A stretch of DNA of 38,630 bases from contig CALLDH010000169.1 of assembly GCA_937998345.1 (NCBI GenBank), forward strand, positions 1-38,630, written 5' to 3'. The translations under genes were made by a program, and so were the position numbers. Of this stretch, positions 5,739-25,793 are shown one piece after another (position 1 is the stretch's first letter; every line of letters starts with the position of its first letter). Below the pieces are notes generated by a model. That model was given only the letters and a program-made list of their open reading frames with translations, was not told where the DNA came from and did not search any database. Origin of the DNA: an uncultured bacterium. Its GTDB lineage: Bacteria; Myxococcota_A; Polyangia; Polyangiales; Houyiibacteriaceae.

Positions 5739-6686
5739 ATCGTTCTTTCACTGATTCTCGCCGCGACAAGCACGTCTGCCTGCAATGCTGAACGCGATAC
5801 GTCGCACACCCTGACGTCGTCGACCCCAGCTGCGTCCTCTCTGAAGCTACCTACCCCCGAATCGTTCTCCAAGCAGTACGCGAGCTTCGATGGCTATTGG
5901 TACCGAGGGTTCGCGGAGCTCACACGCTACGCGCTGCGCCAAGCTCGCTACGGAGAGCAGCATGAAGGCGAGGCCGTCTTGATCTTCGTGACGGAGGACT
6001 TCCTCCGTGGCCCTCAAGTCAAGCGGGAGAGGGGGGATTCGTCGGCCGCACTCTCGGTCCTCAAGCTGAACGCTTATCGTCGCTTCTACACCGGTATCTA
6101 CCCGTACACCCTAATGACCTCTTCGTTCACGCCTGCGGCGCGTAGGGATTCGCGAACGCTGAAGGTCAGCAGCTCGATGCAAGAGTGGTGCGGCAACGTG
6201 TACACTCAGATCAATCGTCGCAAGGATGGGCTGCACGTCACGCTGCACTCGTACTTTCAGGATGACGGGGACCAACAATCGATGCTCCCGGAAGCTCCGC
6301 TCGAAGACGGTCTATGGTCACTGATTCGGATCGACCCCTCGAAGATTTCGACCGGGGAGCGGCAAATGATCCCTGCGCTCCACTACATCCGAATGCGTCA
6401 CAAAGCCCTCCGGCCACATCCGGCCGAGGTCAGCAAGATTGACAAGGTCGCGACCGACCTGGTCGACCATCCAGTTTCTGCGGTCCGCGTCGAGTACGCG
6501 CACCTAGGACGCGAGCTCACGATCTATCACGAGCCGGAGTTCCCTTACATCATTCAGGCTTGGGAAGAAAACGTGGGGGCCCAACGAACCACGGCGGTGC
6601 GAACCCACGCCGTCGTCGATGACTACTGGAACCACAACTCCGCCGGGGATTCCACCTACCGCGAGGCCCTTGGGCTACACCACTAG
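5730..6686 (+). CDS. Conserved hypothetical lipoprotein
   Basis: Lipobox-like TSAC. Blocks YWYxGxAELTRY, QARYGE, AVLIFVTEDF, FYTGIYPY and SSMQEWCG recall an uncharacterised conserved family. Confidence 0.75.
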   Translation: MSRIVLSLILAATSTSACNAERDTSHTLTSSTPAASSLKLPTPESFSKQYASFDGYWYRGFAELTRYALRQARYGEQHEGEAVLIFVTEDFLRGPQVKRERGDSSAALSVLKLNAYRRFYTGIYPYTLMTSSFTPAARRDSRTLKVSSSMQEWCGNVYTQINRRKDGLHVTLHSYFQDDGDQQSMLPEAPLEDGLWSLIRIDPSKISTGERQMIPALHYIRMRHKALRPHPAEVSKIDKVATDLVDHPVSAVRVEYAHLGRELTIYHEPEFPYIIQAWEENVGAQRTTAVRTHAVVDDYWNHNSAGDSTYREALGLHH

Positions 6687-6767
6687 CCCGTAACCGGTTC
6701 GGGCTCTGGTCAGCATCCACTCGTGGAGTTTCCGGGCAGGCTGCGGAGCCAAGCTGCAGATTGCAAT

Positions 6768-7916
6768 TCACGTGCTCGTTGCCCGCCGGATGCCCCGGTA
6801 GATGACTTTGCCAACCGCGACGGGAAACAGTAGCCGCTGAACGGCCCATCGCGGGAAGCGGAAGCTACTGCCGTCGGGACGGAACACCCGAAGCCCGTCT
6901 TCCTGGACGCCCAGAATCGACCCCCAACGATATGGCGGCGGGCTGTACTGCTTCATCGCGTGTTCCTTGCCTTTCAGGGTGGCACGGACGTTATGGGCGA
7001 CGAGGCGGTAACCCCAGTTGCGGGCAGAGCTGCGATGCGGATCGGTGGCTGCAATGTCGCCCACGGCGAACACATTCGGATACCCCGGAACGCGCAGAAA
7101 TTGATCGGTCCGTACGAAGCCTCGCTCGTCTAGCATGTCCCCGGGAATGAAGCTGTTGTTCGGCCGCACGTGGCCCACCGACCAGAGGGTGAGGGCGGCC
7201 TCAAACGGGATCTGTCCTGTAGACCAGCTCACCGGACCGGTCGTGAACCGATCGAAGGCAAAGCCTTCGGGAATGAGGGCACGGTGCCCAGGGTGGAGCT
7301 CGACGCCGATCCGCTCGAGGTGGTCCTCGATCCGCTGTCGCACCTTCGGGTGGTAGCCCGGGAGTGGCTGGGGCTCGCTGTAGAAGAAATGGACCGTCTT
7401 GTCGGGGTACCTCTCCCGGACATTCGCGGCGACGCTGACGCCCGTCGCACCGCCGCCGATGATTGTGATGCTGTCTGCCTCGGCGATCTGCTCGGCCGCG
7501 CGACGGATGCCGTCCCTGATGCTCGTTAGATCCTCTAGCGCATCGTTGCGCCAGAAACCGTTTGCGACACCAGAAGAAATGACCAACGCGTCGTAGGGCT
7601 CGATCTGCTGATCCCCGTCGGGCAAGGTGACGGTGACCTGCTGCGCGCTCGTATCCAAATCGGTGATCCGGCCCTGTAGGACCTGCACGTCGTCCAGTCG
7701 CGGATAGCGGCCGAAGGACATGAGGTAGTTCTGCTTCCATACTTCAGGCCGCGTGAGGCGCGTCCCGAGCTCTTGTCCACTCACGAGGCAGGGCTTGGTG
7801 CTGATCCCGAGGACTTCGAATCCAGGGCCAAGATGAATCGCAACCAGTAGGCCCGTATCACCGAGCCCTGCAATGACCACGCGGGGGCGTGGCGACCGCC
7901 GACCAACGCGCCTCAT
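6768..7916 (-). CDS. FAD-dependent pyridine nucleotide-disulfide-type oxidoreductase (AIF/FSP1-like)
   Basis: VVIAGLGDTG, YDALVISSG, IIGGGATG, VFAVGD. Start at ATG 7916 by ATGA overlap with the SDR stop. Confidence 0.85.
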   Translation of the reverse strand: MRRVGRRSPRPRVVIAGLGDTGLLVAIHLGPGFEVLGISTKPCLVSGQELGTRLTRPEVWKQNYLMSFGRYPRLDDVQVLQGRITDLDTSAQQVTVTLPDGDQQIEPYDALVISSGVANGFWRNDALEDLTSIRDGIRRAAEQIAEADSITIIGGGATGVSVAANVRERYPDKTVHFFYSEPQPLPGYHPKVRQRIEDHLERIGVELHPGHRALIPEGFAFDRFTTGPVSWSTGQIPFEAALTLWSVGHVRPNNSFIPGDMLDERGFVRTDQFLRVPGYPNVFAVGDIAATDPHRSSARNWGYRLVAHNVRATLKGKEHAMKQYSPPPYRWGSILGVQEDGLRVFRPDGSSFRFPRWAVQRLLFPVAVGKVIYRGIRRATST

Positions 7917-8878
7917 GTGAGCTTCGCTTGACGATCGTCTGCGAGCGACTCGAGAGTGCCTGACCATCCGCTGTAGCGGCAGAGCTCGGACCACAAGGCC
8001 TCGCGCTCCTCGGCGGTTTCACGAGTTCTGGCGAACCGATGGGTTGGGCGTGGCGTTCGATCGTGCCAGAACTTGCCCGTGCTTCGCCCGGCTTCGTCTG
8101 CGGCGCAAAGCCAGACGATGGTATCTGCACCTTGCGCAGGGCTTCGCAAAAGCGCCTTCGTGAGCCTGTAGAAGCGCGGGAGAGAGGTTGAAACTCCCGG
8201 CGTGTCGGCCCATCCGGGATGCATGGAGTGCACGACCACGCCGCACGGAGCGAGCGCGCCGGCCCAAAGTTCGGTCAAGATGACCTGGCCCCGCTTTGTC
8301 CGGGCGTAGGCCTTCGCTCCGTCATATGTTCCGTGCGCGCTCTGCAGGTCGCTCACCGAGATGCGCTGAGCATACATACCGCCAGACGCCACATTGATGA
8401 TGCGCGCGGACGCGGCGAGTTTGGGGACCAGCAAATTCGTCAGCAAAAAGTGTCCGAGAAGGTTCGTCGCAAACGTGGTTTCGATGCCCTCAGCCGTCTC
8501 GGTGCGAGTAGGCAACAGGACTCCGGCGTTGTTGACGAGAATGTGAATCGGGGCTTCGATTCGCTTGGCGAGCGCGCGTACGTCGGACATCAAACTAAGG
8601 TCTGCGACCTCAATCCCGACGGCAGCGCTGCCAGTCTGCTCGGTGATGCCCGCTGCGACTTGTTCCGTCTTGTCTCGATTGCGCCCGACGAGCTGTACAG
8701 TCGCGCCGAGGCGCGCCAACTCCGTCGCGGTCTGCTTTCCCAGGCCGGATGTCGCTCCCGTGACCACGGCCGTCCGGCCTGTGAGGTCCGCATCGATGCT
8801 CGAGTGAGACCGCCAGCGGTAGCCAAGCGACGTATACCCGAGCAAAGACTTGTCCAAGATCCGATCACGCATCCACAC
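7913..8878 (-). CDS. Short-chain dehydrogenase/reductase (DHRS12-like)
   Basis: TGATSGLG, NNAG, catalytic YARTK, MHPGWADTPG. Confidence 0.92.
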   Translation of the reverse strand: MWMRDRILDKSLLGYTSLGYRWRSHSSIDADLTGRTAVVTGATSGLGKQTATELARLGATVQLVGRNRDKTEQVAAGITEQTGSAAVGIEVADLSLMSDVRALAKRIEAPIHILVNNAGVLLPTRTETAEGIETTFATNLLGHFLLTNLLVPKLAASARIINVASGGMYAQRISVSDLQSAHGTYDGAKAYARTKRGQVILTELWAGALAPCGVVVHSMHPGWADTPGVSTSLPRFYRLTKALLRSPAQGADTIVWLCAADEAGRSTGKFWHDRTPRPTHRFARTRETAEEREALWSELCRYSGWSGTLESLADDRQAKLT

Positions 8879-8941
8879 TACCTGGGACCAGTCGCATCGA
8901 TCCGCAACCGAGGCGCCGACGCGTCATTCGTACCTCCGACG

Positions 8942-9177
8942 TCAGACTGCCTTCGTGTCGAGCGCCGCATGGATTTCCGTCAGGAGCGAAGCTCGATCGT
9001 AGGCGTGGAGCTTTGTGCTCACCGCGTGAAGAAACACGCTTGCGAACTCGGGCTTTCTCGGATGAGTCGCTGCGCCTGGGCCTTGTCGACCTGGCCGAGT
9101 GTCGTGGGGCCGAAGGCGCGCGCATCGAGGATTCGGATCGGCATGCGATTGTAAGCAATTGAGCATTCTTCCAGGCG
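8942..9177 (-). pseudogene. C-terminal remnant of a probable cyclic-nucleotide-binding domain protein, frameshifted
   Basis: ...PIRILDARAFGPTTLGQVDKAQAQRLIRE joins KPEFASVFLHAVSTKL... if one A is added in the run at 9054-9056. No intact 5' end. Confidence 0.4.
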
Positions 9178-12192: not shown

Positions 12193-12212
12193 CCGCAACC
12201 CGCCGCTTTTTT
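12181..12212 (+). terminator. Possible intrinsic terminator of the MFS gene
   Basis: cggcgg...ccgccg stem followed by c and six T, overlapping the stop codon. Confidence 0.5.
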
Positions 12213-12246
12213 GAAGAGATCCGGAAGAAGAGATCCGACCGAGGTT
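12213..12246 (+). repeat. Orphan copy of the RAYT-flanking motif with stutter
   Basis: gaagagatccg-gaa-gaagagatccgaccgaggtt; core at 12230-12246. Confidence 0.8.
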
Positions 12247-12594
12247 GAGCAGAAAGCCGGAACCCGTGGCGTCCTCACGCTGCCGCGTGCATCTCGTCGC
12301 AGACCGTCGCCAAGTCCTCGAGAGCGGTGGCGCAATCGCCTTCGAAGGACGAGCCGTGCTCTCTTCGCCCATCGGGCTCATGCTGAGGGCCCAAGTGCGC
12401 GGTACTGATTGTCATGTCGCGTCAGGAACCGCGCCGACAGGGCCTTTGTTCTTACTACCCTCGGGCATCAGCGGCGTTCAAGCACGGGATCATTGCAGCA
12501 GCCCGTGAGGTGAATCGGTTGCGCGCAGGTCGCCGTATCGCGCTAGAACTGCGCCGATTGGCGCCGTGAACCCCATAAATCCGGGACGGCGATT

Positions 12595-14434: not shown

Positions 14435-15928
14435 ATGTTTAACGAATACGTACAGTACGATGCCCTCGCTTTGGCGGAGCTCGTGTCCAAGGGCGAGGTT
14501 CATCCGAAAGAGGTCTTGGAGGCTGCCATCCGGCGCGCGGAGAAGCTCAATCCTCGGCTCAATGCGATCGTCACGCCGCTCTACGACTACGCGCGTGATC
14601 GCGTCCAGCAGGATTTGAGCGGCCCCTTTGCCGGGGTGCCATTTCTCTTGAAGGACGTTCACCACGCGTTGAAGGGAACGCCGATGAGCAATGGCAGCCG
14701 GCTTCACAAAGGCGAGGTTTCGGAGGTCACCGCGGAGATCGTGCGCCGGTTTCTCGACGCGGGCGTGGTCGTGTTCGGCAAGACCAATACGCCTGAATAC
14801 AAGCTCTCGGTGCTGACGATGCCGGAGGCTTGGGGGCCTACCCGTAACCCGTGGGACGTGACTCGGTTGCCGGGTGGTTCGAGTGGAGGATCCGCGGCCG
14901 CAGTCGCGGCTGGCATCGTGCCGATGGCATCGGCGACCGACGAAGGAGGATCGATACGGATGCCCGCCTCGGCATGCGGGGTGTTCGGCCTCAAGCCGAG
15001 CAGAGGGCGAAACCCGATCGGACCGGACTTCAGTTGGGAGGCCGAGGGGCTTTCGACCTCCGGTGTGATCACGCGCACGGTCCGCGACAGCGCAGCAATG
15101 CTCGACGCCACCGAAGGACCCGAGCCTGGCTCGCCCTACGTGGCGCCTGGGCCGACGGGCTTCCTCGCCGCTCTCAGTGATCCTCTGGGTCGACTGCGTA
15201 TCGGAGTTTCGACTGCGTCCAATGTCTTCGGAATGCCGATGGATGGCCCTTGTGTCGATGCGGTTCGCGTCACAGGTCTTCTTCTGCAGGACCTGGGCCA
15301 CGTGGTCGAAGAGGTGCCGCTTCCATACGACGAGTGGGAGGTGCTCCAAACGTTCCTGATTCTGCTTGCGGCCAATACCGCGGCCGTCATGACGGAGTTG
15401 GAGGGGCGATATGGCAAGAGCAGGGTTCGCGCTTCGCTCGAGGATGTCTCTCTTCTGCTCGGAAAGGTTGGCCGGGCCATGCCCGCCGAATCCGTCGGCA
15501 CCTCTCGAATCAACGCGCGTCGCATCGGCGCCAAGCTGGCGGCTTTCCATGACGACTATGACGTTCTGGTCACGCCCACGCTTGGACGCGTGCCGATTCC
15601 GATCGAGCAGGGCGAGCTCACCGCAGCAGAGAAGCGGCTCCTTCGCTTTGTGTTATCGCCTGCAGCGGCCGGCCTCTTACACGTCAGACGCTTCCTCGAG
15701 CGTATGATGGAAACTCAGACAGAATCGGTCGTCCGGCAAGTGCTGTGGCGAACGCCGATCGCTAATGTCGCTGGAGTCCCCGCCATGTCGGTGCCGCTTC
15801 ATCGAACCGAAAACGACCTGCCGGTCGGGGTGCAGTTCATTGGGCGCTACGGAGACGAAGTCACTCTCCTCAGGCTGGCCGCGCAGCTCGAGGAAGCCAA
15901 ACCTTGGCGCGTGGCTACGGGCACTTGA
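14435..15928 (+). CDS. Amidase-signature family hydrolase
   Basis: [47 protein letters not shown] at 14435 follows ggag. Confidence 0.93.
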
Positions 15929-16179
15929 ACGACCCCGGGGAACGGAAGAAGATCCAACCCACGTTGGCGGTGACGCAAAGCCGCGCGAAGCTGATCCAAG
16001 GCTTCTGGTCAGCGTGCGATGCACCCAATGGTGCCGATGAAAGCACCCGGAACACTCCACTATATCGCGAAGGGCGCGCTCGTCGCGGCCTCGCTCCAGG
16101 GAATTGGGCCCTCACCATGCACGCCGGCGCCCCCGCCCCGTAGGGCAGTCGAGAAAGCTCCGGCTGGGCATTGTGTGCT

Positions 16180-17097
16180 CTACGGGGCGGGCCCGCACCG
16201 CGCCCCGTGACACACCCGCATCCACCAGGTGCCTTCGGGGAAGCACGCGCTTCGGTCTCCAGCGGTCCACGCCCCGAGCGCCCGCGCGTACTGTGCCTTG
16301 AATGCTCGGACGCGCTTCACTGCCTCGGTGGCCACCGCTCGATGGCCCGCAGCGGCAAACTGAGGATTGAGGCTCCCAAACACTTCGTAGCTCTTGGCCC
16401 GCTTCGTGTGCGCGAGCTTGAGGACGCGCCTCGGGCCCACAAACGAGAGCCCTGTCCGCTTGGCCTTGTTCCACGCTTGATGTTGCTTGTCCCGCACGCG
16501 TTCGGCGATGCGCTGACGGGCGAGCTCAGGCCCATAGTCGAGTTCGAGTGCCACCGGCATCTGCAGCCGAAGCTCGAGCTCTTCGGGCCACTCAGGGTTA
16601 TTGGGGTCGAAGTAGTGCGGAGGGCGCTTGACCCGGATGACACGCGTCCCGACGTGTGGGGGGAGGGTGTGCGCTCCGGGCCAGTCTTTGGCGTACCGGA
16701 CGGCGCCTGCTTCGACCGGGTTGACGATGAGGTAGGCGATGGCCTCGACCATGGCTTCAGGCGTCAGCAGCACGTGGGCGCCACTACTATCCTTATTGAA
16801 AACTTCCTCGGGCCACCCGCGATAGGCCTTGGTGCACAAGGCGAGGTAGCGGTGAAAGGTCTGCAAGAACTTTGGGTACACGCCTCGCACGTCGGTGATG
16901 ACCTCGTGGGAATGAGTCGACATGAGGCACGCGGCGTGGACCAAGACACCATGGAGCTCGGCCGCGTAGGCGAGGCAATACCAATACACTTGCTCCATCT
17001 GCCGTGCTTCGTCCGGATTGAGAAGGAAGTGGCGGCGCGTGGTGCGACGAGAGAGCGCCAGGGTGGCGCCCGGATCCACAATGCGGGGTCGGGTCAT
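16180..17097 (-). CDS. REP-associated tyrosine transposase-like (HUH/Y1) protein with long C-terminal extension
   Basis: HUH motif CLMSTHSH; catalytic Tyr block AYLIVNPVEAGAV...DWPG; 305 aa. Confidence 0.88.
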   Translation of the reverse strand: MTRPRIVDPGATLALSRRTTRRHFLLNPDEARQMEQVYWYCLAYAAELHGVLVHAACLMSTHSHEVITDVRGVYPKFLQTFHRYLALCTKAYRGWPEEVFNKDSSGAHVLLTPEAMVEAIAYLIVNPVEAGAVRYAKDWPGAHTLPPHVGTRVIRVKRPPHYFDPNNPEWPEELELRLQMPVALELDYGPELARQRIAERVRDKQHQAWNKAKRTGLSFVGPRRVLKLAHTKRAKSYEVFGSLNPQFAAAGHRAVATEAVKRVRAFKAQYARALGAWTAGDRSACFPEGTWWMRVCHGARCGPAP

Positions 17098-17219: not shown

Positions 17220-17364
17220 GCTATACGCCAACACGTACTGCGTTTGGGGTAACCTCGGTAGAATCTCCTAATCTCCTTCTTGGCACCCCAGCTGGCGCAG
17301 CGGGGGCGCTCCCGTCACGCTGCATTGACTGGCGGTCGGAATCCCGTCGCTGTGGAGGCGCTAG

Positions 17365-18372
17365 ATGCGGTATTTCTTGGGAATCTTGGGAATCGTCTTG
17401 GTGGCTGCGCTTGGAGCGGCCGGGTTGAGTGGCTGCAGCGAAGCCGAGAACGCGGGTGGCACGGGTGGGACTGCGGGGACCGGGGGCACGGCTGGAGCCG
17501 GAGGCACGGCGGGAACCGGCGGGACGATCGAGGGGTTCGATCCGCTCGAAGGGATCGGAGATGTCGAGCTGGTCGTCGACGGATTCCTGTTTACCGAAGG
17601 GCCGCATTGGCGGGCGACGGAGCAGCGGCTTCTGTTCACCGACATTCCGGTAGGGGTGATCTACGAGCTGACGCCGCCGGATGATGTTCAGACGTTTCGT
17701 GAGGAAAGCCAGATGGCCAACGGGCTCGCTTCGGATTCCGATGGTCTCTTGCTTGCGGCCGAGCACGAGTCCCGGCGGGTGTCGCGGACGCTCGAGGACG
17801 GGACGATCGTGACTGTGGCAAGTGAGTACATGGGCGACTCGTTGAACTCGCCGAACGACATTGCGGTTCGGATCGATGGAACGATTTACTTCACGGACCC
17901 GCCGTACGGGATCAACCAGGCAACACAGCAGGAGCTCGACTTCAACGGTGTGTTTCGGGTGGACCCGGAAGGCGTGCTGACCGCGGAGTGGGAAGGCGAG
18001 CTGGAGTCACGGCCGAATGGGCTCGTGCTTTCGCCGGATGAGCGGCGCTTGTACGTGGCGGACACCACGGAGGGCGTGATGGTGTTCGATGTGAATGCCG
18101 ACGGTTCGCTTGGTGAAGAACAGGCCTTCGTTCCATCCGTGGCGGGCGCCGATGGGATGGCGATGGACACCGGTGGCAATTTGTTCGTGTCGACGGCGAC
18201 CGGCGTGCAGGTGTTCGACCCCGAGGGGACGCTTTGGGGGACGATCGAGATGCCGGAAGGTGCACTCGCACCGGCGAACTGCGCGTTTGGCGGAGACGAC
18301 GCGCGAACCTTATACATCACGGCGCGCTCGGCGCTCTACCAAGTGCGCTTGATGCGGCCGGGCTTGTACTGA
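17365..18372 (+). CDS. SMP-30/gluconolactonase/LRE family lipoprotein
   Basis: Lipobox LSGC, Gly/Thr linker, [42 protein letters not shown]. Confidence 0.93.
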
Positions 18373-20442: not shown

Positions 20443-20460
20443 GAGATTTTACCGACATTG
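20443..20460 (+). repeat. Degenerate orphan copy of the RAYT-flanking motif
   Basis: gagattttaccgacattg versus gagatcctaccgacgttg at 22787; intergenic. Confidence 0.55.
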
Positions 20461-20706: not shown

Positions 20707-21159
20707 TCAAAGGGTGATCAAATCGCCAAGGCGCTCGACGATCTCGTCTTGCTTGCTCGCAGCCAAATCTTTGTCGAGCGCGGCCATCACGAGCTGAGCC
20801 GTCGGGCCGTCGAGGGAAGACCGGAGCAATCCCAAGAACTTTGGCGGCGCAACGAGAACCACGCCCCTGTATCGATTCTGCACGCGAGCATCCTGGAGCT
20901 TGTCGGCCAGCGCTCTCGCGAAGTCGGAAACCGCTCTATCGTGCGGGCCTTCGCTCTGGCCCATCGACGCGCGGCCAGGGTCACCGCTGTTTTTGCGAAA
21001 AGAGCGGCCAGGACGGTCGGAAGCCATGTCCCGATCCCGTGCTCGACCCTCGGGGTGCTCGACCTCCTCGACGAGCTCCAGCCCCGTTCCGCGACCGCGG
21101 TTCTCGAAGAATCGAGCCCCCGCCTCGTGAGCGACTACAATCCATGTGCTGGTCATCAT
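20707..21159 (-). CDS. Host attachment protein (baeRF12/AtsE-like)
   Basis: TWIVVAHEAGARFF, SDRPGRSF, FARALA, LVAPPKFLGLLR, DKDL; SD gggagg. Confidence 0.88.
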   Translation of the reverse strand: MMTSTWIVVAHEAGARFFENRGRGTGLELVEEVEHPEGRARDRDMASDRPGRSFRKNSGDPGRASMGQSEGPHDRAVSDFARALADKLQDARVQNRYRGVVLVAPPKFLGLLRSSLDGPTAQLVMAALDKDLAASKQDEIVERLGDLITL

Positions 21160-21179
21160 CTGTCCTCCCTTGTTGCAAC

Positions 21180-21310
21180 TCAGGATGTGGGTAGTGAACG
21201 AAGCGCCTGGAGCTCGATTATCTGCTTCGAGTCGTCCCCGGCGATGACCTCGATGCCCGACAGCATCCCCGATTCTTCGCGAATGTAAATCTCTTTCGGC
21301 CTCGCCACCC
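21180..21310 (-). pseudogene. C-terminal gene fragment, DUF5335-like
   Basis: VARPKEIYIREESGMLSGIEVIAGDDSKQIIELQ recalls the DUF5335 C-terminus. No matching N-terminus upstream. Confidence 0.4.
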
Positions 21311-21318
21311 GGTCGGGA

Positions 21319-21490
21319 TCAGTCGACCCAGAGGAAAGCTTCGGGCCAGCGGTTCCGCATCCAAGCCACGCCGGCTCCCACCGCATCGTCCAGCGCGAAC
21401 GAGGGAGCATACCCAAGTGCCCGAATCCGCCCATCGTCGAAGTGGCTCGCGCACGCCAAGATTCTTTTTGGCCCATTGGGACGATGTTTT
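21319..21490 (-). pseudogene. C-terminal remnant of an NAD-dependent epimerase/dehydratase
   Basis: HFDDGRIRALGYAPSFALDDAVGAGVAWMRNRW* matches the usual extended-SDR tail. Confidence 0.45.
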
Positions 21491-21782
21491 GGGCCGAGTT
21501 GCGCGGTACTCGCTTGTTATGTCGTGTGGGGCGCGAACCGAGTCCATCAACCAGTCGGCGTGCGCAGCCTGGTGAAGCAAGCCGTCTGCAATTGCAATGG
21601 GACGATAGAGCGAAAGCATGGCTTCATCCCCCTTGCCCCCCGGGTCGGGTCGCCCACCTGCCAACCTTCCGGGTCCGTGAATCGCCTACATTGAGGCTCT
21701 TCATACTCAAAGTGTGCGCTCGAAGGACAACGCGGTTCATACGCAATTCCTATCGCTAGCGCCCGTGCCGTTCCGTAGAGTT

Positions 21783-22721
21783 TCAGTTCGCAGGGACGGT
21801 CGTCGCACTCTCGATTCGAAAGTCGAAGCTCTCGTCGATCTCCGCGTGTTCCCGATGGCCCTCTTCGACGAAGACGACCTTGTTCTTGATTCTGCCGGTG
21901 GCGGTGCCATGGGAACCGAGGGTCCTGAGGTCGAGACGAATGTGACCGGTCGCTATTGTTTGACCCGACTCGACTTCGAGCGAAGATTCATCCTCGGCGA
22001 ACTCGACGATCTGACGGTTGCCGCTTCGCGCAAACTCCACGTCGAGAACAACCTGGTCTCCGTCGCGCTCCACCAGGGTGTAAATCGCCTCCTGCACCAT
22101 CTTGACGCCGTGGAGCGCCAACATGCCTCGAACTGCCCAACGGGCGCCCACACCGACCTCCTCGTTGGGAAGGGCCACGACAGAGACGAGCGAGAACGCG
22201 TTGGTGATGGTCCAGAGTAGACGCAGAGGTACGTCGACGGCCTTTTGATTGTAGCGAAGGCCGCGCACATGACCGCTGTCATCCATTGCGTTCCACGAAC
22301 CCGTGCCTTTCAAGAAGTCCGTGTGCACCTGGATGTCCTCGAGGAGCTTCTCGCTGGCACCGGGCCCAGCCACGGCCTTGGACTCGACAATCTCGAAGTC
22401 ATAGCGGATCTCTTGCTCATCGACCTTCGCGGGCCCGATCACCGCGTGTATCTCCATTTTCTGCAGTCCGGATACGGTCGTGGTCGGGCTGCCGTGCTCG
22501 GATGGGATGACTCGCCACGACATCTTGGAAGTCGTCGTCGTCCCCTCCGCGATCGCGTAGCGCAGCAGGCTCCTCGGCTCTTCGCCCGCGTCTAGGAGCT
22601 CTAGCGGAATGAAAGGAGGCGCCTCTGCCGCAGGCGGTGTCTTGCAGCCAATGAGCAACAAGACGAGGCAACCCAGAATCCAGTGCTCTCGAATCATCGA
22701 AAAGGTCCTCCCGATAGTCAC
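21783..22721 (-). CDS. Hypothetical lipoprotein
   Basis: Lipobox LIGC; LLDAGEEPRSLLRY and LPNEEVGVGARW blocks typical of myxobacterial lipoproteins. Confidence 0.8.
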   Translation of the reverse strand: MTIGRTFSMIREHWILGCLVLLLIGCKTPPAAEAPPFIPLELLDAGEEPRSLLRYAIAEGTTTTSKMSWRVIPSEHGSPTTTVSGLQKMEIHAVIGPAKVDEQEIRYDFEIVESKAVAGPGASEKLLEDIQVHTDFLKGTGSWNAMDDSGHVRGLRYNQKAVDVPLRLLWTITNAFSLVSVVALPNEEVGVGARWAVRGMLALHGVKMVQEAIYTLVERDGDQVVLDVEFARSGNRQIVEFAEDESSLEVESGQTIATGHIRLDLRTLGSHGTATGRIKNKVVFVEEGHREHAEIDESFDFRIESATTVPAN

Positions 22722-22750
22722 GCAGATTGCGGCATAGTACCGGAACCGGA

Positions 22751-22803
22751 CAGAGATCCCAGAGATCCCAGCAGAGATCCTACCCAGAGATCCTACCGAC
22801 GTT
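22751..22803 (+). repeat. Stuttered terminal motif of element B
   Basis: cagagatcc|cagagatcc|cag|cagagatcctacc|cagagatcctaccgacgtt. Confidence 0.9.
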
Positions 22804-22834
22804 GTGCAAAGCGAAGCGCGCTCTCGGCGATTCG

Positions 22835-22867
22835 GCTGTAGTGTCGTGAGGCGGCGGCCGCCGGCGG
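22835..22867 (+). repeat. Conserved GTAG + palindrome block (REP-like), copy B
   Basis: gctGTAGtgtcgtgaggcggcggccgccggcgg; ends in the perfect palindrome ccgccggcgg. Confidence 0.75.
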
Positions 22868-22937
22868 AGTCTGGCGTACCGTCAGCAGTGTTGGACGCGC
22901 CGGTCTAGAATTTGCGGGGAATGTTGACACTGAGCTC

Positions 22938-22953
22938 CGGCACGGTTCTCGCT
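22938..22953 (+). promoter_or_regulatory. sigma54-like promoter of transposase B
   Basis: CGGCACGGTTCTCGCT (GG-N10-GC), 12 nt before ATG 22966. Confidence 0.6.
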
Positions 22954-22965
22954 GGGGCTCATTGC

Positions 22966-23883
22966 ATGACCCGACGACGCATCATCGAGCCCGGCACCAC
23001 TTGGGCACTCTCACGACGCACGACCCGGCGCCACTTCCTGCTCAATCCCGACGAAGCTCGGCAGATGGAGCAAGCGTATTGGTACAGCCTGGGATATGCG
23101 GCCAATGCGCACGGCGTCTCCGTGCACGCGGGCTGTCTAATGTCGAGCCACTCCCATGAAGTGGTCACCGATGTCCGCGGGGAGCTCCCCCGCTTCCTTC
23201 GCACCTTCCACCGCCTTCTCGCGCTGATTACCAAGGCCTATCGCAAGTGGCCGGAAGAGGTTTTCAACAAGCGCAGCACGGGCGCCCATGAGCTGCTGAC
23301 GCCACAAGCCACGATTGAGGCGCTGGCCTACCTCATCGCCAACCCCGTCGAAGCGATGGCGGTGCGCTACGCCAAGGATTGGCCCGGCGCACACACTCTG
23401 CCTCGAGACATCGGTACGCGCGTCATCCGCGTGCGTCGACCGGACCACTACTTCGACCCCCACAACCCCGCATGGCCTGACGTCATCGAGCTTCGATTGG
23501 GGATGCCGGCAATGCTCGAGCTGGACCATGGGGTTGAGCTTGCTCAGCAACGCATCGCCGCGCGCGTCCGAGAGCGGGAGCGCGGTGCGTTGCGGGAGGC
23601 CAGGCGAAGCGGCCGCAGCTTCGTCGGACCGCGACGGGTGCTTCGGCTCGCGCATACCAAGCGGGCCCGAAGTTACGAAGAGTTCGGAAGCCTTGACCCT
23701 CAGTTCGCTGCTGCCGGGCATCGAGAGGCGGCTGTGCATGCGGTGCGGCGTTTGCGGCGATTCAACGCCCAATATGACAAGGCGCTTCACGGCTGGACGT
23801 CAGGTGACCGTAACGCGTGCTTCCCAAGTGGCACCTGGTGGATGCGGGTGTGCCACGGGGCCCGCTGCGGTCCGGCGCCGTAG
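22966..23883 (+). CDS. REP-associated tyrosine transposase-like (HUH/Y1) protein, paralogue of 16180-17097
   Basis: CLMSSHSH and AYLIANPVEA...DWPG. ATG 22966 gives 305 aa, colinear with copy A. Confidence 0.88.
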   Translation: MTRRRIIEPGTTWALSRRTTRRHFLLNPDEARQMEQAYWYSLGYAANAHGVSVHAGCLMSSHSHEVVTDVRGELPRFLRTFHRLLALITKAYRKWPEEVFNKRSTGAHELLTPQATIEALAYLIANPVEAMAVRYAKDWPGAHTLPRDIGTRVIRVRRPDHYFDPHNPAWPDVIELRLGMPAMLELDHGVELAQQRIAARVRERERGALREARRSGRSFVGPRRVLRLAHTKRARSYEEFGSLDPQFAAAGHREAAVHAVRRLRRFNAQYDKALHGWTSGDRNACFPSGTWWMRVCHGARCGPAP

Positions 23884-24201
23884 GGTCGTTCCAACCGTAT
23901 CCGTCACCGTTGTGAAGCTTGGACCTCGACGGCGTCCGACGGCGTATCGGTGCGTCCGGAGCGCGACAACTCGGACAGCGAACCCGCCCCACGAGCTCGC
24001 AAGCAGGTGAATGGGGCTCAATCGGGCCGCCGAGCGCGCGTCGCGGGCCCTCCGTGAGCGACCAACTGGACCCGCAGCACCCACTCATTGACCGCCAACC
24101 TCGGTCGGATCTTTATAATCGGGGTTCTGTCGTCCGGCGCCCCAAGCACCACGGGCTCAGAGCGATCCGCGACGAGCTCGGTACCTGAGCGACGGCTCTG
24201 T

Positions 24202-24750: not shown

Positions 24751-25659
24751 TCAGCCGTGCGCGTCGAGCCAGCCGGCGATCCGCGGCCAAACTTCCTCGC
24801 TCGCCGCCTTGCTGATGATCATTTCGACGTGGCCGTAGTCCTTGCTGAACCCTTGCTCGACGCCAAGCAGCACCCAGGCCTTGTCTTGGCTACCCACTGC
24901 GTCGAAGAGCAGACGGCAACCGGTCGCGGGATCGTTCTTGTCGTTCGACGCAGCGAAGGCCAACAAGGGTACTTCGATGCGACGCACTCCATCCCAGTAG
25001 TTGCGCCCGTCCTCCGTGAGCCATTGCCGATTTGGCCCTTTCCATCGATAGAAGTCGAGCATGTAACCGCGCGACTCTGGCTCCGGCCCGAGGCGAAACA
25101 GGCGCGCCGGGACTCGTCCGAGGAGGGTGAGCAGACCCCATGCGGCGGCTCGGGGCACCGCTCGTTGCATCCAACTGTCGCCTTCGCTGATGTTGGCGCC
25201 GAGGACCACCGCCGAACGCATCTGTTCGCCCGACGTCCAACCGCCAGCAAGAGAGCCGACAATGGCGACGCCACCCCAGGAGTGACCGACCCAGTGCGCG
25301 TGCTGACCCGTTTCCGCAGCCACCATTTGTTGAACCGCGGGCAGATCCCAGCGCATCTGATCCTCGGCGCTCCAGTTGCGATAGCGCCTGTCGCGGGTTG
25401 AGCGCCCGTGACCGCGCATCTCCGGAATCCAAACGTCGTAGCCATGCTGGAGGAGGTGCGGGGCGAGGCCGACTCCTTTGCTCGAAACCCAGAAGCTACG
25501 TTGGCAAAAGGTGCCGTGCACCAGAACTACCGGCTCACGAGCGCCATCATCTGAGTCGTCAAGAAGCCGAGTGATCGCGATCTCTACATCGTCCTCGGTC
25601 TTGATCCGATAGACTCGCGCGCTCACGGGCCCAATCCGATCCTTCTGGAACTTCGCCAT
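24751..25659 (-). CDS. Alpha/beta-fold hydrolase
   Basis: VLVHG, EMRGHG, nucleophile GHSWGG, acid SNDK, DYGH. Confidence 0.9.
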   Translation of the reverse strand: MAKFQKDRIGPVSARVYRIKTEDDVEIAITRLLDDSDDGAREPVVLVHGTFCQRSFWVSSKGVGLAPHLLQHGYDVWIPEMRGHGRSTRDRRYRNWSAEDQMRWDLPAVQQMVAAETGQHAHWVGHSWGGVAIVGSLAGGWTSGEQMRSAVVLGANISEGDSWMQRAVPRAAAWGLLTLLGRVPARLFRLGPEPESRGYMLDFYRWKGPNRQWLTEDGRNYWDGVRRIEVPLLAFAASNDKNDPATGCRLLFDAVGSQDKAWVLLGVEQGFSKDYGHVEMIISKAASEEVWPRIAGWLDAHG

Positions 25660-25793
25660 CGTGTTCCCCGTAGCTCTCTTAGCCCACTAGGCGCATGTTG
25701 AGAACCGAGCTGCGCGGTACTACGTGTGGCGTCGACGTCCTCAGACTCGACGAATCGCCCTTCTGGTCCCAACACGGTCGCGACCGCACGAGG

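Follow-up and report, generated by a model that had tools for sequence, protein, structure and literature searches.

Nested prefix arrays at the terminal inverted repeats of RAYT/TIRtron-like HUH/Y1 elements of Polyangiales, and their possible origin in repeated nicking and rejoining

Introduction

Elements of the IS200/IS605 group have no terminal inverted repeats, carry the hairpins of both ends on one strand and encode a transposase of about 130–150 aa. In these elements, a guide tetranucleotide determines where cleavage occurs, as described in PMC8266576. For TnpA_REP, the same source describes cleavage at the dinucleotides on either side of the hairpin, with a 5'P-tyrosine link and a 3'-OH that is able to prime replication; the 3'-OH of an added oligonucleotide resolves the link and is joined to the enzyme-linked 5' end. 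According to this source, the 3'-OH might prime replication or serve in strand transfer, and the mechanism of RAYT dissemination is poorly understood (PMC8266576).

In the TIRtron systems, as described in PMC3733652 and PMC6006769, the repeat families are small and the repeats sometimes occur as dimers or clusters. The main group is described there as having the repeat GGGGWSAS and a C-terminal HTH (DnaA_C, HTH_23 or HTH_28). The survey of Quentin et al. 2018 is stated to have begun from the Pfam Y1_Tnp profile at an E-value of 0.01 (PMC6006769), and the string 'Myxococc' is absent from the main text of both PMC3733652 and PMC6006769.

Here, a stretch of 38,630 nt (the window) from contig CALLDH010000169.1 of an uncultured bacterium of the Polyangiales (assembly GCA_937998345.1) was analysed. 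An earlier note, made from the sequence alone, had drawn attention to nested 'stutter' duplications at the outer edge of a terminal motif and had read them as scars of repeated site-specific nicking and strand transfer at a fixed position. The stutters are real, statistically strong and found across a deep family. The reading given to them in the earlier note is the best available one; it is circumstantial, and we would place it slightly above an even chance.

Terminal inverted repeats and organization of the elements

Two elements of about 1.33 kb in the window have the repeated motif as their terminal inverted repeat. The consensus of the motif is rAGATCCgACCGAsGTTG(gc), and conservation in the sequence logo begins at -2/-1 relative to the G of GATCC. 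The 17-nt motif has six matches in the window at ≤3 mismatches (0.10 expected; none of the 100 shuffles reached six), and four of these matches are arranged as inverted pairs, 15949+/17267- and 22787+/24113-. Each element is composed of a terminal repeat, about 170 nt, a 305-aa HUH/Y1 gene, about 235 nt and the inverted repeat.

Element 2 starts with a left terminal inverted repeat (22785–22804, plus strand), assigned by motif match and logo, in which a 4-nt leader, caga, precedes GATCCTACCGACGTTG. It is followed by a conserved 5' region (22805–22965, plus strand; 42 left ends aligned) with the GC-rich palindrome GGCGGCCGCCGGCGG, by the HUH/Y1 gene (22966–23883, plus strand; 305 aa from the ATG), and by the right terminal inverted repeat (24097–24116, minus strand; AAGATCCGACCGAGGTT plus leader), where a prefix array is absent. 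The protein of element 2 (P0001) was kept as a 323-aa sequence starting from an upstream TTG at 22912. In element 1, the HUH/Y1 gene (16180–17097, minus strand; P0002, 305 aa) lies between a left terminal repeat at 17251–17277 on the minus strand (aggaGATTCTACCGAGGTT behind one 8-nt prefix unit, aggagatt) and a right terminal repeat at 15946–15965 on the plus strand (gaaGATCCAACCCACGTT). The two genes are paralogues sharing 71–74% DNA identity over two aligned blocks. A solo terminal repeat with no adjoining HUH gene is found at 12213–12246 (plus strand), and a weak motif match with three mismatches and without an array, at 20443–20459 (plus strand), may be due to chance or may be a relic.

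In the closest relative (locus L001, 95% protein identity), homology to element 1 extends across 17269–15948, from repeat edge to repeat edge, with 92% DNA identity. It begins at 17269, the restart base (the base at which the sequence starts anew after the prefix unit of element 1), and ends at 15948. The label 'terminal' used in the earlier note is borne out, since the motif brackets two paralogous genes in inverted orientation and the L001 homology ends at its outer edges. The flank of L001 (3720–3938) matches the window elsewhere, at 24781–24563, and in three further loci (L031, L048 and L056) the element is located beside homologues of the window genes at 27.7–32.6 kb, where the window has no element. 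Because the flanks differ in L001 and in these relatives, the repeat-bounded unit has moved or been rearranged among related genomes. The L001 copy of element 1 adjoins, in opposite orientation, the sequence found next to element 2 in the window, an arrangement that could reflect inversion or exchange between two inverted copies. A search for empty sites by way of the neighbouring gene in 41 related genomes led to a multi-copy gene family, the closest match being 60% identical.

At 80 related loci, the motif lies about 166–178 nt upstream of the start codon and an inverted copy about 228–250 nt past the stop codon; from these loci and the two window elements, 59 left and 62 right ends were located. 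The assembly to which the window belongs (79% complete) contains four copies of the gene and 16 motif matches at ≤3 mismatches, about 10 of them real. The closed genome of a 3.5-Mb relative has 20 motif matches versus three for a reversed-pattern control, and that of a 5.4-Mb relative has 37 versus two.

The palindrome within the motif, CCGACC..GGTTGG, is imperfect, and the pair formed by positions 5 and 14 is G:T in 70 of 117 ends. No covariation was detected in the palindrome among these 117 ends, and RNAalifold found no consensus helix beyond two 3-bp stems in 42 left ends and in a 53-nt sub-region of 40 of them. Likewise, DNA folding of 120 ends revealed no excess energy relative to shuffles (mean z: left ends, -0.03; right ends, -0.5). 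By eye, a hairpin 20–45 nt inside the end can be drawn in some copies, with a shifting register. Neither Rfam searches at gathering scores nor tRNA scans returned anything for the window.

The HUH/Y1 protein and the region upstream of its gene

As judged from sequence profiles and a structure model (pLDDT 86.8), the proteins of both elements belong to the HUH/Y1 family and resemble TnpA_REP, and they are predicted to nick DNA site-specifically. Residues H62, H64 and Y122 (AYLIxNP) are invariant in a 32-sequence alignment reaching down to 47% identity. The NCBIfam profile REP_Tyr_transpos (NF047646) is matched over positions 2–144 of 146 with an E-value of 4e-8, the scores of the two window proteins (33.2 and 30.3 bits) being below the curated cut-off of 80. 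Pfam gave no match to P0001 or P0002 even at E-values up to 10, PF01797 (Y1_Tnp) included, and a profile search of PDB sequences gave nothing at E-values up to 1. The family lies outside the Pfam Y1_Tnp profile used by earlier surveys and therefore extends the known range of these enzymes. The best PDB match of the model is 4er8_A, TnpA_REP of E. coli bound to a REP hairpin (Foldseek E-value, 3.6e-5; TMt, 0.67); VIA also places 4er8_A first (Z 13.4, rmsd 3.3, 157 aligned residues), followed by IS608 TnpA (Z 8.4). The C-terminal half of the protein, about 150 residues, matches no known family, and an atlas look-up of this half returned only unnamed myxobacterial clusters with scores <0.9.

At E ≤ 0.001, 482 homologues were found in Myxococcota/Polyangiales metagenome genomes, labelled 'transposase' by their sources; of the 120 homologues listed, nearly all have 305 aa. 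The genes are under purifying selection, with dN/dS of 0.06–0.09 for the element 1 gene versus close relatives and 0.12–0.14 for the element 2 gene versus paralogues.

A box, GGCACG-N4-TCGC(T), is found about 13–27 nt upstream of the ATG in both elements (22939–22952, and 17125–17112 on the minus strand) and is nearly invariant among the 42 left ends (columns 163–177 of alignment A3). Its GG-N10-GC spacing fits the sigma-54 -24/-12 consensus, and the box is a putative sigma-54 promoter. A GC-rich palindrome (TGGCGGCCGCCGGCGG ... CCGCCA) is situated about 60 nt further upstream of the box, and similar blocks occur upstream of the Sorangium-clade genes.

Prefix arrays in the window

The nested stutters were confirmed base for base at all three places where the earlier note had reported them. 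The stretch 22751–22803 consists of cagagatcc (22751–22759), cagagatcc (22760–22768), cag (22769–22771), cagagatcctacc (22772–22784) and cagagatcctaccgacgtt (22785–22803). The first four, of 9, 9, 3 and 13 nt, are truncated units that make up the left prefix array of element 2 (22751–22784, plus strand). The five junctions fall on the same c, so that the restart base is exact within this locus. At 12213–12246, the sequence reads gaagagatccg|gaa|gaagagatccgaccgaggtt, two prefix units of 11 and 3 nt preceding the solo repeat, and at 17277–17251 on the minus strand it reads aggagatt|aggagattctaccgaggtt. In each case, the leader and the variant of the motif found in the units are those of the full copy next to them (caga..CCT for element 2, agga..TTCT for element 1, gaaga..CCG at 12213). 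Tandem Repeats Finder reported 21 rows, corresponding to about 18 arrays, in the 38.6-kb window, two of which (17262–17277 and 22751–22797) are at motif edges.

A stutter-like repeat, caagattcc/caagattcc, is also present at 17400–17365 on the minus strand, where it forms the coding start of an SMP-30/gluconolactonase-like gene. It was rejected as a relic of the motif, as it encodes the signal-peptide repeat LGILGI.

Variation among strains and assemblies

The window stretch occurs in 18 runs from eight studies, none of which is on record as RNA. Logan contigs of runs X3, X12 and X13, originating from three studies, cross 22751–22803 without an indel; the records cover 20944–22993, 21122–22993 and 21839–22993 and contain 0, 1 and 2 other letters, respectively. 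Independent contigs thus reproduce the array, which is not an assembly artefact; arrays are also present in closed genomes of Sorangium isolates. Length heterogeneity, which the earlier note had proposed to look for in reads, was not seen at 22751–22803 in the contigs of four runs; contigs drop rare variants, and minor length variants are therefore compatible with this uniformity. A JGI metagenome contig (L150), on the other hand, equals window positions 22560–23000 over 441 nt at 100% identity except that the innermost 13-nt unit, cagagatcctacc (22772–22784), is absent. This polymorphism could be a loss by slippage between two perfect 13-nt repeats.

Strain indels over 12.4 kb were found at four places, two of which are the outer edges of right repeats. 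At the outer edge of the right repeat of element 2 (24114–24116), runs X13 and X14 have 19 nt more and X3 has 1 nt less than the window. At the right repeat of element 1, X13 and X14 have an extra A behind 15940, and the contigs of X3 and X14 break at 15926/15941. A 9-nt deletion is found in X3 at 17453, further into the SMP-30/gluconolactonase-like gene. Finally, the right arm of element 2 contains at 23927–23945 a 10-nt tandem repeat, CGACGGCGTC, in 1.9 copies, of which X13 has one unit more. This is ordinary copy-number polymorphism, and it is a caution for the reading of the 13-nt unit difference.

The X13 and X14 contigs depart from the window sequence at 12210 and 12213, at the start of the array of the solo repeat; the loose-end sequences of variant contigs at 12210–12256 were not found in this assembly. 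A second dispersed intergenic repeat of about 50–60 nt (..GCCCATCGGGC..TGCGCGGTACT..) is located nearby at 12358–12419, and again at 21468–21510 and 25673–25734. It is also carried by contigs C21 and C245, with five clear copies in the assembly, and Rfam returned nothing for it. Contigs of four runs diverge at the borders of this repeat (loose ends at 12358, 12406 and 21500) into several continuations.

Prefix arrays in related elements

The 5' flanks were tabulated for the 115 of 121 located element ends that have a clean outer flank. An end was scored as stutter-positive if at least one exact copy of the 7-mer formed by 2 nt and GATCC lay within 120 nt outside the motif. By this test, 54 of the 115 ends (24/57 left, 30/58 right) are positive and 61 are without an array, in a set whose loci are related and do not count as independent samples (at this end, L028 and L040 have the same sequence). 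Stutters exceed those at random sites: of 2118 anchors placed at random in the same loci, 53 were positive. As further controls, the inner side gave 11/121 and the reverse-complemented outer flank 2/121. Comparison of the outer flank with the first 90 nt of the end yielded 159 exact matches of at least 8 nt, 96 of which begin between offsets -10 and -1, including 67 between -6 and -3; the inner-side control of the same test gave 26 matches, which were scattered. A strict parse into abutting prefixes worked for 38 of the 121 ends and, once identical ends had been dropped, provided 60 units of 3 to 76 nt, seven of them of only 3 nt. The prefix copies are found on the outer side of both ends and always read inward. 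Solo repeats with stutters are known from the window (12213) and from contig C245.

The claim that the units restart at a fixed base holds exactly within each locus, but between loci the distance to the motif varies from 1 to 9 nt 5' of GATCC. Offsets of 3 and 4 nt are the commonest (11 and 10 cases), with 1 nt in two cases, 2 nt in four, 5 nt in six, 6 nt in three, and 8 and 9 nt in one each; in L059, the offset is 5 at one end and 8 at the other. Among the parsed units, neither a dinucleotide shared at the restart nor a required last base of the unit was found. A guide-like complement of the first three bases after the restart was searched for inside the end, and the best antiparallel score (46/114) was below the shuffled maximum (mean 49). 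A 'direct' guide peak at +25 was discarded as an artefact of arrays in which the outer copy had been picked. No complementarity exists between the leaders of the two ends.

The truncated copies might be explained as selected, iteron-like binding sites for the HUH protein or a regulator, tuning expression or end recognition. GATCC units at a spacing of 9–13 nt upstream of the conserved promoter-like region would suit such a role, and repeat clusters beside RAYT genes are described in PMC3116915 and PMC3733652. We consider this explanation very improbable in view of the 61 ends that have no such units, the arrays found past the right end as well, remote from any promoter, and a unit length that spans 3 to 76 nt. 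In addition, the number, length and order of units vary between close relatives: L001 has prefix units of 15 and 38 nt versus the single 8-nt unit of element 1.

Stutters are also present in more distant members of the family. The paralogues on contigs C220 and C18 (about 40% protein identity) have another repeat, AACCCGACCCGGGTT, and units of 40 and 56 nt. In their clade, with about 40% identity, the trait recurs with a different motif, CGACCCGACCCRGGTTG; among 52 loci of this clade are closed genomes of cultured Sorangium strains. The 47 of these loci with enough flank contain 469 inward-reading repeat copies versus 61 outward-reading ones; at least two copies at one end were found in 40 loci, and the maximum at a single end is 14. 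The trait thus goes with the enzyme family and not with one sequence. In L098, the locus most closely related to the C220 paralogue, the left flank holds a duplicate of the left end, about 215 nt long, ahead of the full copy; the duplicate extends through the first 12 nt of the gene (ATGACCCAACCA), and shorter stutters are nested in both copies. Some of the 2–10-nt tails that follow GGTTG in the Sorangium arrays are not prefixes of the innermost copy; therefore, other processes contribute there.

Two paralogous segments of about 430 nt on assembly contig C333 (~6422–6922 and 8510–9010 (-)) each start with a solo terminal repeat, and the window solo copy at 12230 has the first ~14 nt after the motif in common with them. 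One of the segments has a 13-nt duplication (gagcagaaaggcg) directly past the GGTT of the motif, i.e., an inner-side stutter.

The long units and irregular tails bear on the possibility that the arrays were formed by enzyme-dependent joining when the element inserted or when a break at its boundary was repaired, short enzyme-linked end fragments, or products of polymerase run-off and template jumping, being added serially to a broken flank. Such a process would involve a linear intermediate with a physical 5' end; it would still depend on the HUH enzyme, but would not consist of nicking, extension and rejoining in place. It would give the same polarity and homology-free junctions, and could account for the filler nucleotides and non-prefix tails of the Sorangium arrays as well as for the long units, those of 60–76 nt and that of about 215 nt reaching the ATG in L098. 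However, leader and motif variant are specific to each locus, and the units share those of the full copy beside them; moreover, in L150 the array differs by one unit at an unchanged insertion site. The latter means that at least some of the events occurred in place, after insertion, and we regard joining at insertion or break repair as quite unlikely to be the source of the arrays.

Origin of the arrays

The reading we prefer, at odds only a little better than even, is that the arrays are scars of repeated nicking, short inward copying and rejoining at the element boundary. At the outer boundary of the element, the encoded enzyme would nick the strand on which the motif runs 5'→3' towards the interior, and would stay tyrosine-linked to the 5' end of the element. 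The 3'-OH of the flank would then be extended by a host polymerase, so that the first bases of the element are recopied and the enzyme-linked strand is displaced; extension would often halt after GATC(C), where the enzyme-bound motif would start. The enzyme would join its own 5' end to the new 3'-OH, giving flank + prefix(n) + full end, and the next round of replication would fix the duplication. Repeated cycles would stack prefixes of unequal length, all restarting at the nick. The covalently bound protein would presumably shield the displaced flap from removal. These steps of nicking, extension and rejoining we infer from the sequence only.

Several features of the arrays are consistent with this proposal. 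An enzyme linked to the 5' end together with a 3'-OH on the flank predicts exactly the observed pattern, i.e., prefixes on the outer side that read inward; a nick inside the motif would instead be expected to give a shared unit end with variable starts. About half of the junctions lack microhomology: 29 of the 60 have none, which is about the chance level, and none is present at the window junctions tcc|cag, cag|cag and acc|cag. The units end directly after GATC or GATCC in 20 of 60 cases. The mismatch to the full copy is 0.047–0.048 per nt in the two innermost ranks and 0.09–0.12 in ranks 3–5; such an age gradient is also expected for any tandem array.

The presence of an invariant HxH and Y in a TnpA_REP fold, homology-free joining, non-random stops, change in place and the age gradient count in favour of nicking and rejoining. 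The varying restart offset, the 61 of 115 ends without arrays, the uniform contigs, and an imperfect palindrome that has neither covariation nor folding excess count against it. The flexible cleavage of TnpA_REP may, by analogy, be a precedent for the varying restart and is not an explanation of it. As regards the scars of nicking and strand transfer claimed in the earlier note, the HUH/Y1 enzyme, the polarity, the homology-free junctions, the one-unit polymorphism and the divergence gradient agree with them. Nested insertion of element into element was rejected as a source of the arrays, as the split remainder expected beyond the other end is replaced there by inward-reading prefixes of that end's own repeat.

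Ordinary replication errors would require no enzyme-made nick: the palindrome CCGACC..GGTTGG, or a bound protein, would stall the fork, and slipped-strand mispairing and unequal exchange would follow. In line with this, the prefix ends cluster just before the 5' foot of the palindrome (the 20 of 60 units mentioned above), and neighbours of equal length exist, as in the two cagagatcc units of the window and the gaac-spaced units of L139. Moreover, the tandem repeat at 23927–23945, which is unrelated to the motif, is polymorphic in the same populations, and the one-unit difference of L150 is a change of the slippage type. Replication errors are nevertheless an unlikely cause of the arrays as a whole. 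The first duplication would need homology at the restart, which is lacking in 29 of 60 junctions, and start-less units would be expected inside the arrays, whereas the observed restarts cluster at one place. Furthermore, the ends are not unusually structured according to the folding z-scores, and at both ends the arrays are confined to the outer side, irrespective of fork direction.

If nicking and rejoining did produce the arrays, these would mark the in vivo cleavage site at single-base resolution in dozens of elements, and the 3'-OH of the flank would be shown to be extended in the cell. A more far-reaching proposal, which we regard as tentative and rather doubtful, is that these are HUH elements of an undescribed kind, which start DNA synthesis in vivo from nicks at both of their inverted ends, inward from each flank, the arrays being abortive initiations. 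The arrays would then provide, for the first time in a natural setting, a base-resolution footprint of replication primed by a RAYT-type enzyme, and would record past nicking events in order, the innermost unit being the newest and the record decaying slowly. Cleavage assays and mutation-accumulation sequencing are practical, as homologues are present in Sorangium strains that can be cultivated and whose genomes are closed.

Comparison with known systems

Similar to REPtrons (RAYT/TnpA_REP; E. coli YafM, 4er8), the elements encode a protein with an HUH/Y1 catalytic fold closest to 4er8 and with a weak match to NCBIfam REP_Tyr_transpos. The gene likewise lies between oppositely oriented copies of a short repeat that is palindromic in part and of which a few solo copies are intergenic, and it is under purifying selection. 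In contrast to REPtrons, the window protein is 305 aa long, with a C-terminal half of about 150 aa of no known family, and the logo of the window motif has no GTAG at its 5' side. A REPtron comprises hundreds of REP/REPIN copies and a single gene, whereas the family described here has tens of repeats and several diverged genes per genome. Nested prefix arrays are not mentioned in the REPtron descriptions of the main texts considered.

With the TIRtrons (TIRYTs; Di Nocera et al. 2013, PMC3733652, and subclass 2.1 as described in PMC6006769), the elements share a RAYT-like Y1 gene placed between terminal inverted repeats that are not classic REPs. The main TIRtron group differs in its repeat, that of the window being rAGATCCgACCGAsGTTG, and in its C-terminal domains, as Pfam finds no domain in the window proteins; the Y1_Tnp profile from which the survey of Quentin et al. 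started is not matched by the window family. In Pseudomonas fluorescens SBW25, as described by Bertels and Rainey 2011 (PMC3116915), cognate REPIN/REP clusters also lie beside tyrosine-transposase genes, with tandem repeats that include flank. According to that description, the SBW25 clusters are tandem arrays of whole, nearly identical REPINs, whereas the window family has 3'-truncated prefixes of unequal length that share one restart base. In the literature searched and the main texts considered, no description of such prefix arrays was found.

The likeness to IS200/IS605 elements (IS608, ISDra2) is limited to the Y1 HUH fold (matches to 2vhg, 2xm3 and 2f4f) and to a 5'-phosphotyrosine and free 3'-OH chemistry that the window enzymes would share. 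Unlike IS200/IS605, the window elements have inverted repeats and a 305-aa protein, and a guide signal was not found at the ends of the window family. Unprocessed 5'-flap ligation of the FEN1/Rad27 type offers a further parallel: when a strand is displaced from a nick and the resulting 5' flap is joined, a tandem duplication that starts at the nick is produced. The nicks in that case are not site-specific, and short repeats are usually involved; in the window family, by contrast, the covalently attached enzyme would itself protect and rejoin the flap. Taken together, the elements are a new variant of the RAYT/TIRtron systems.
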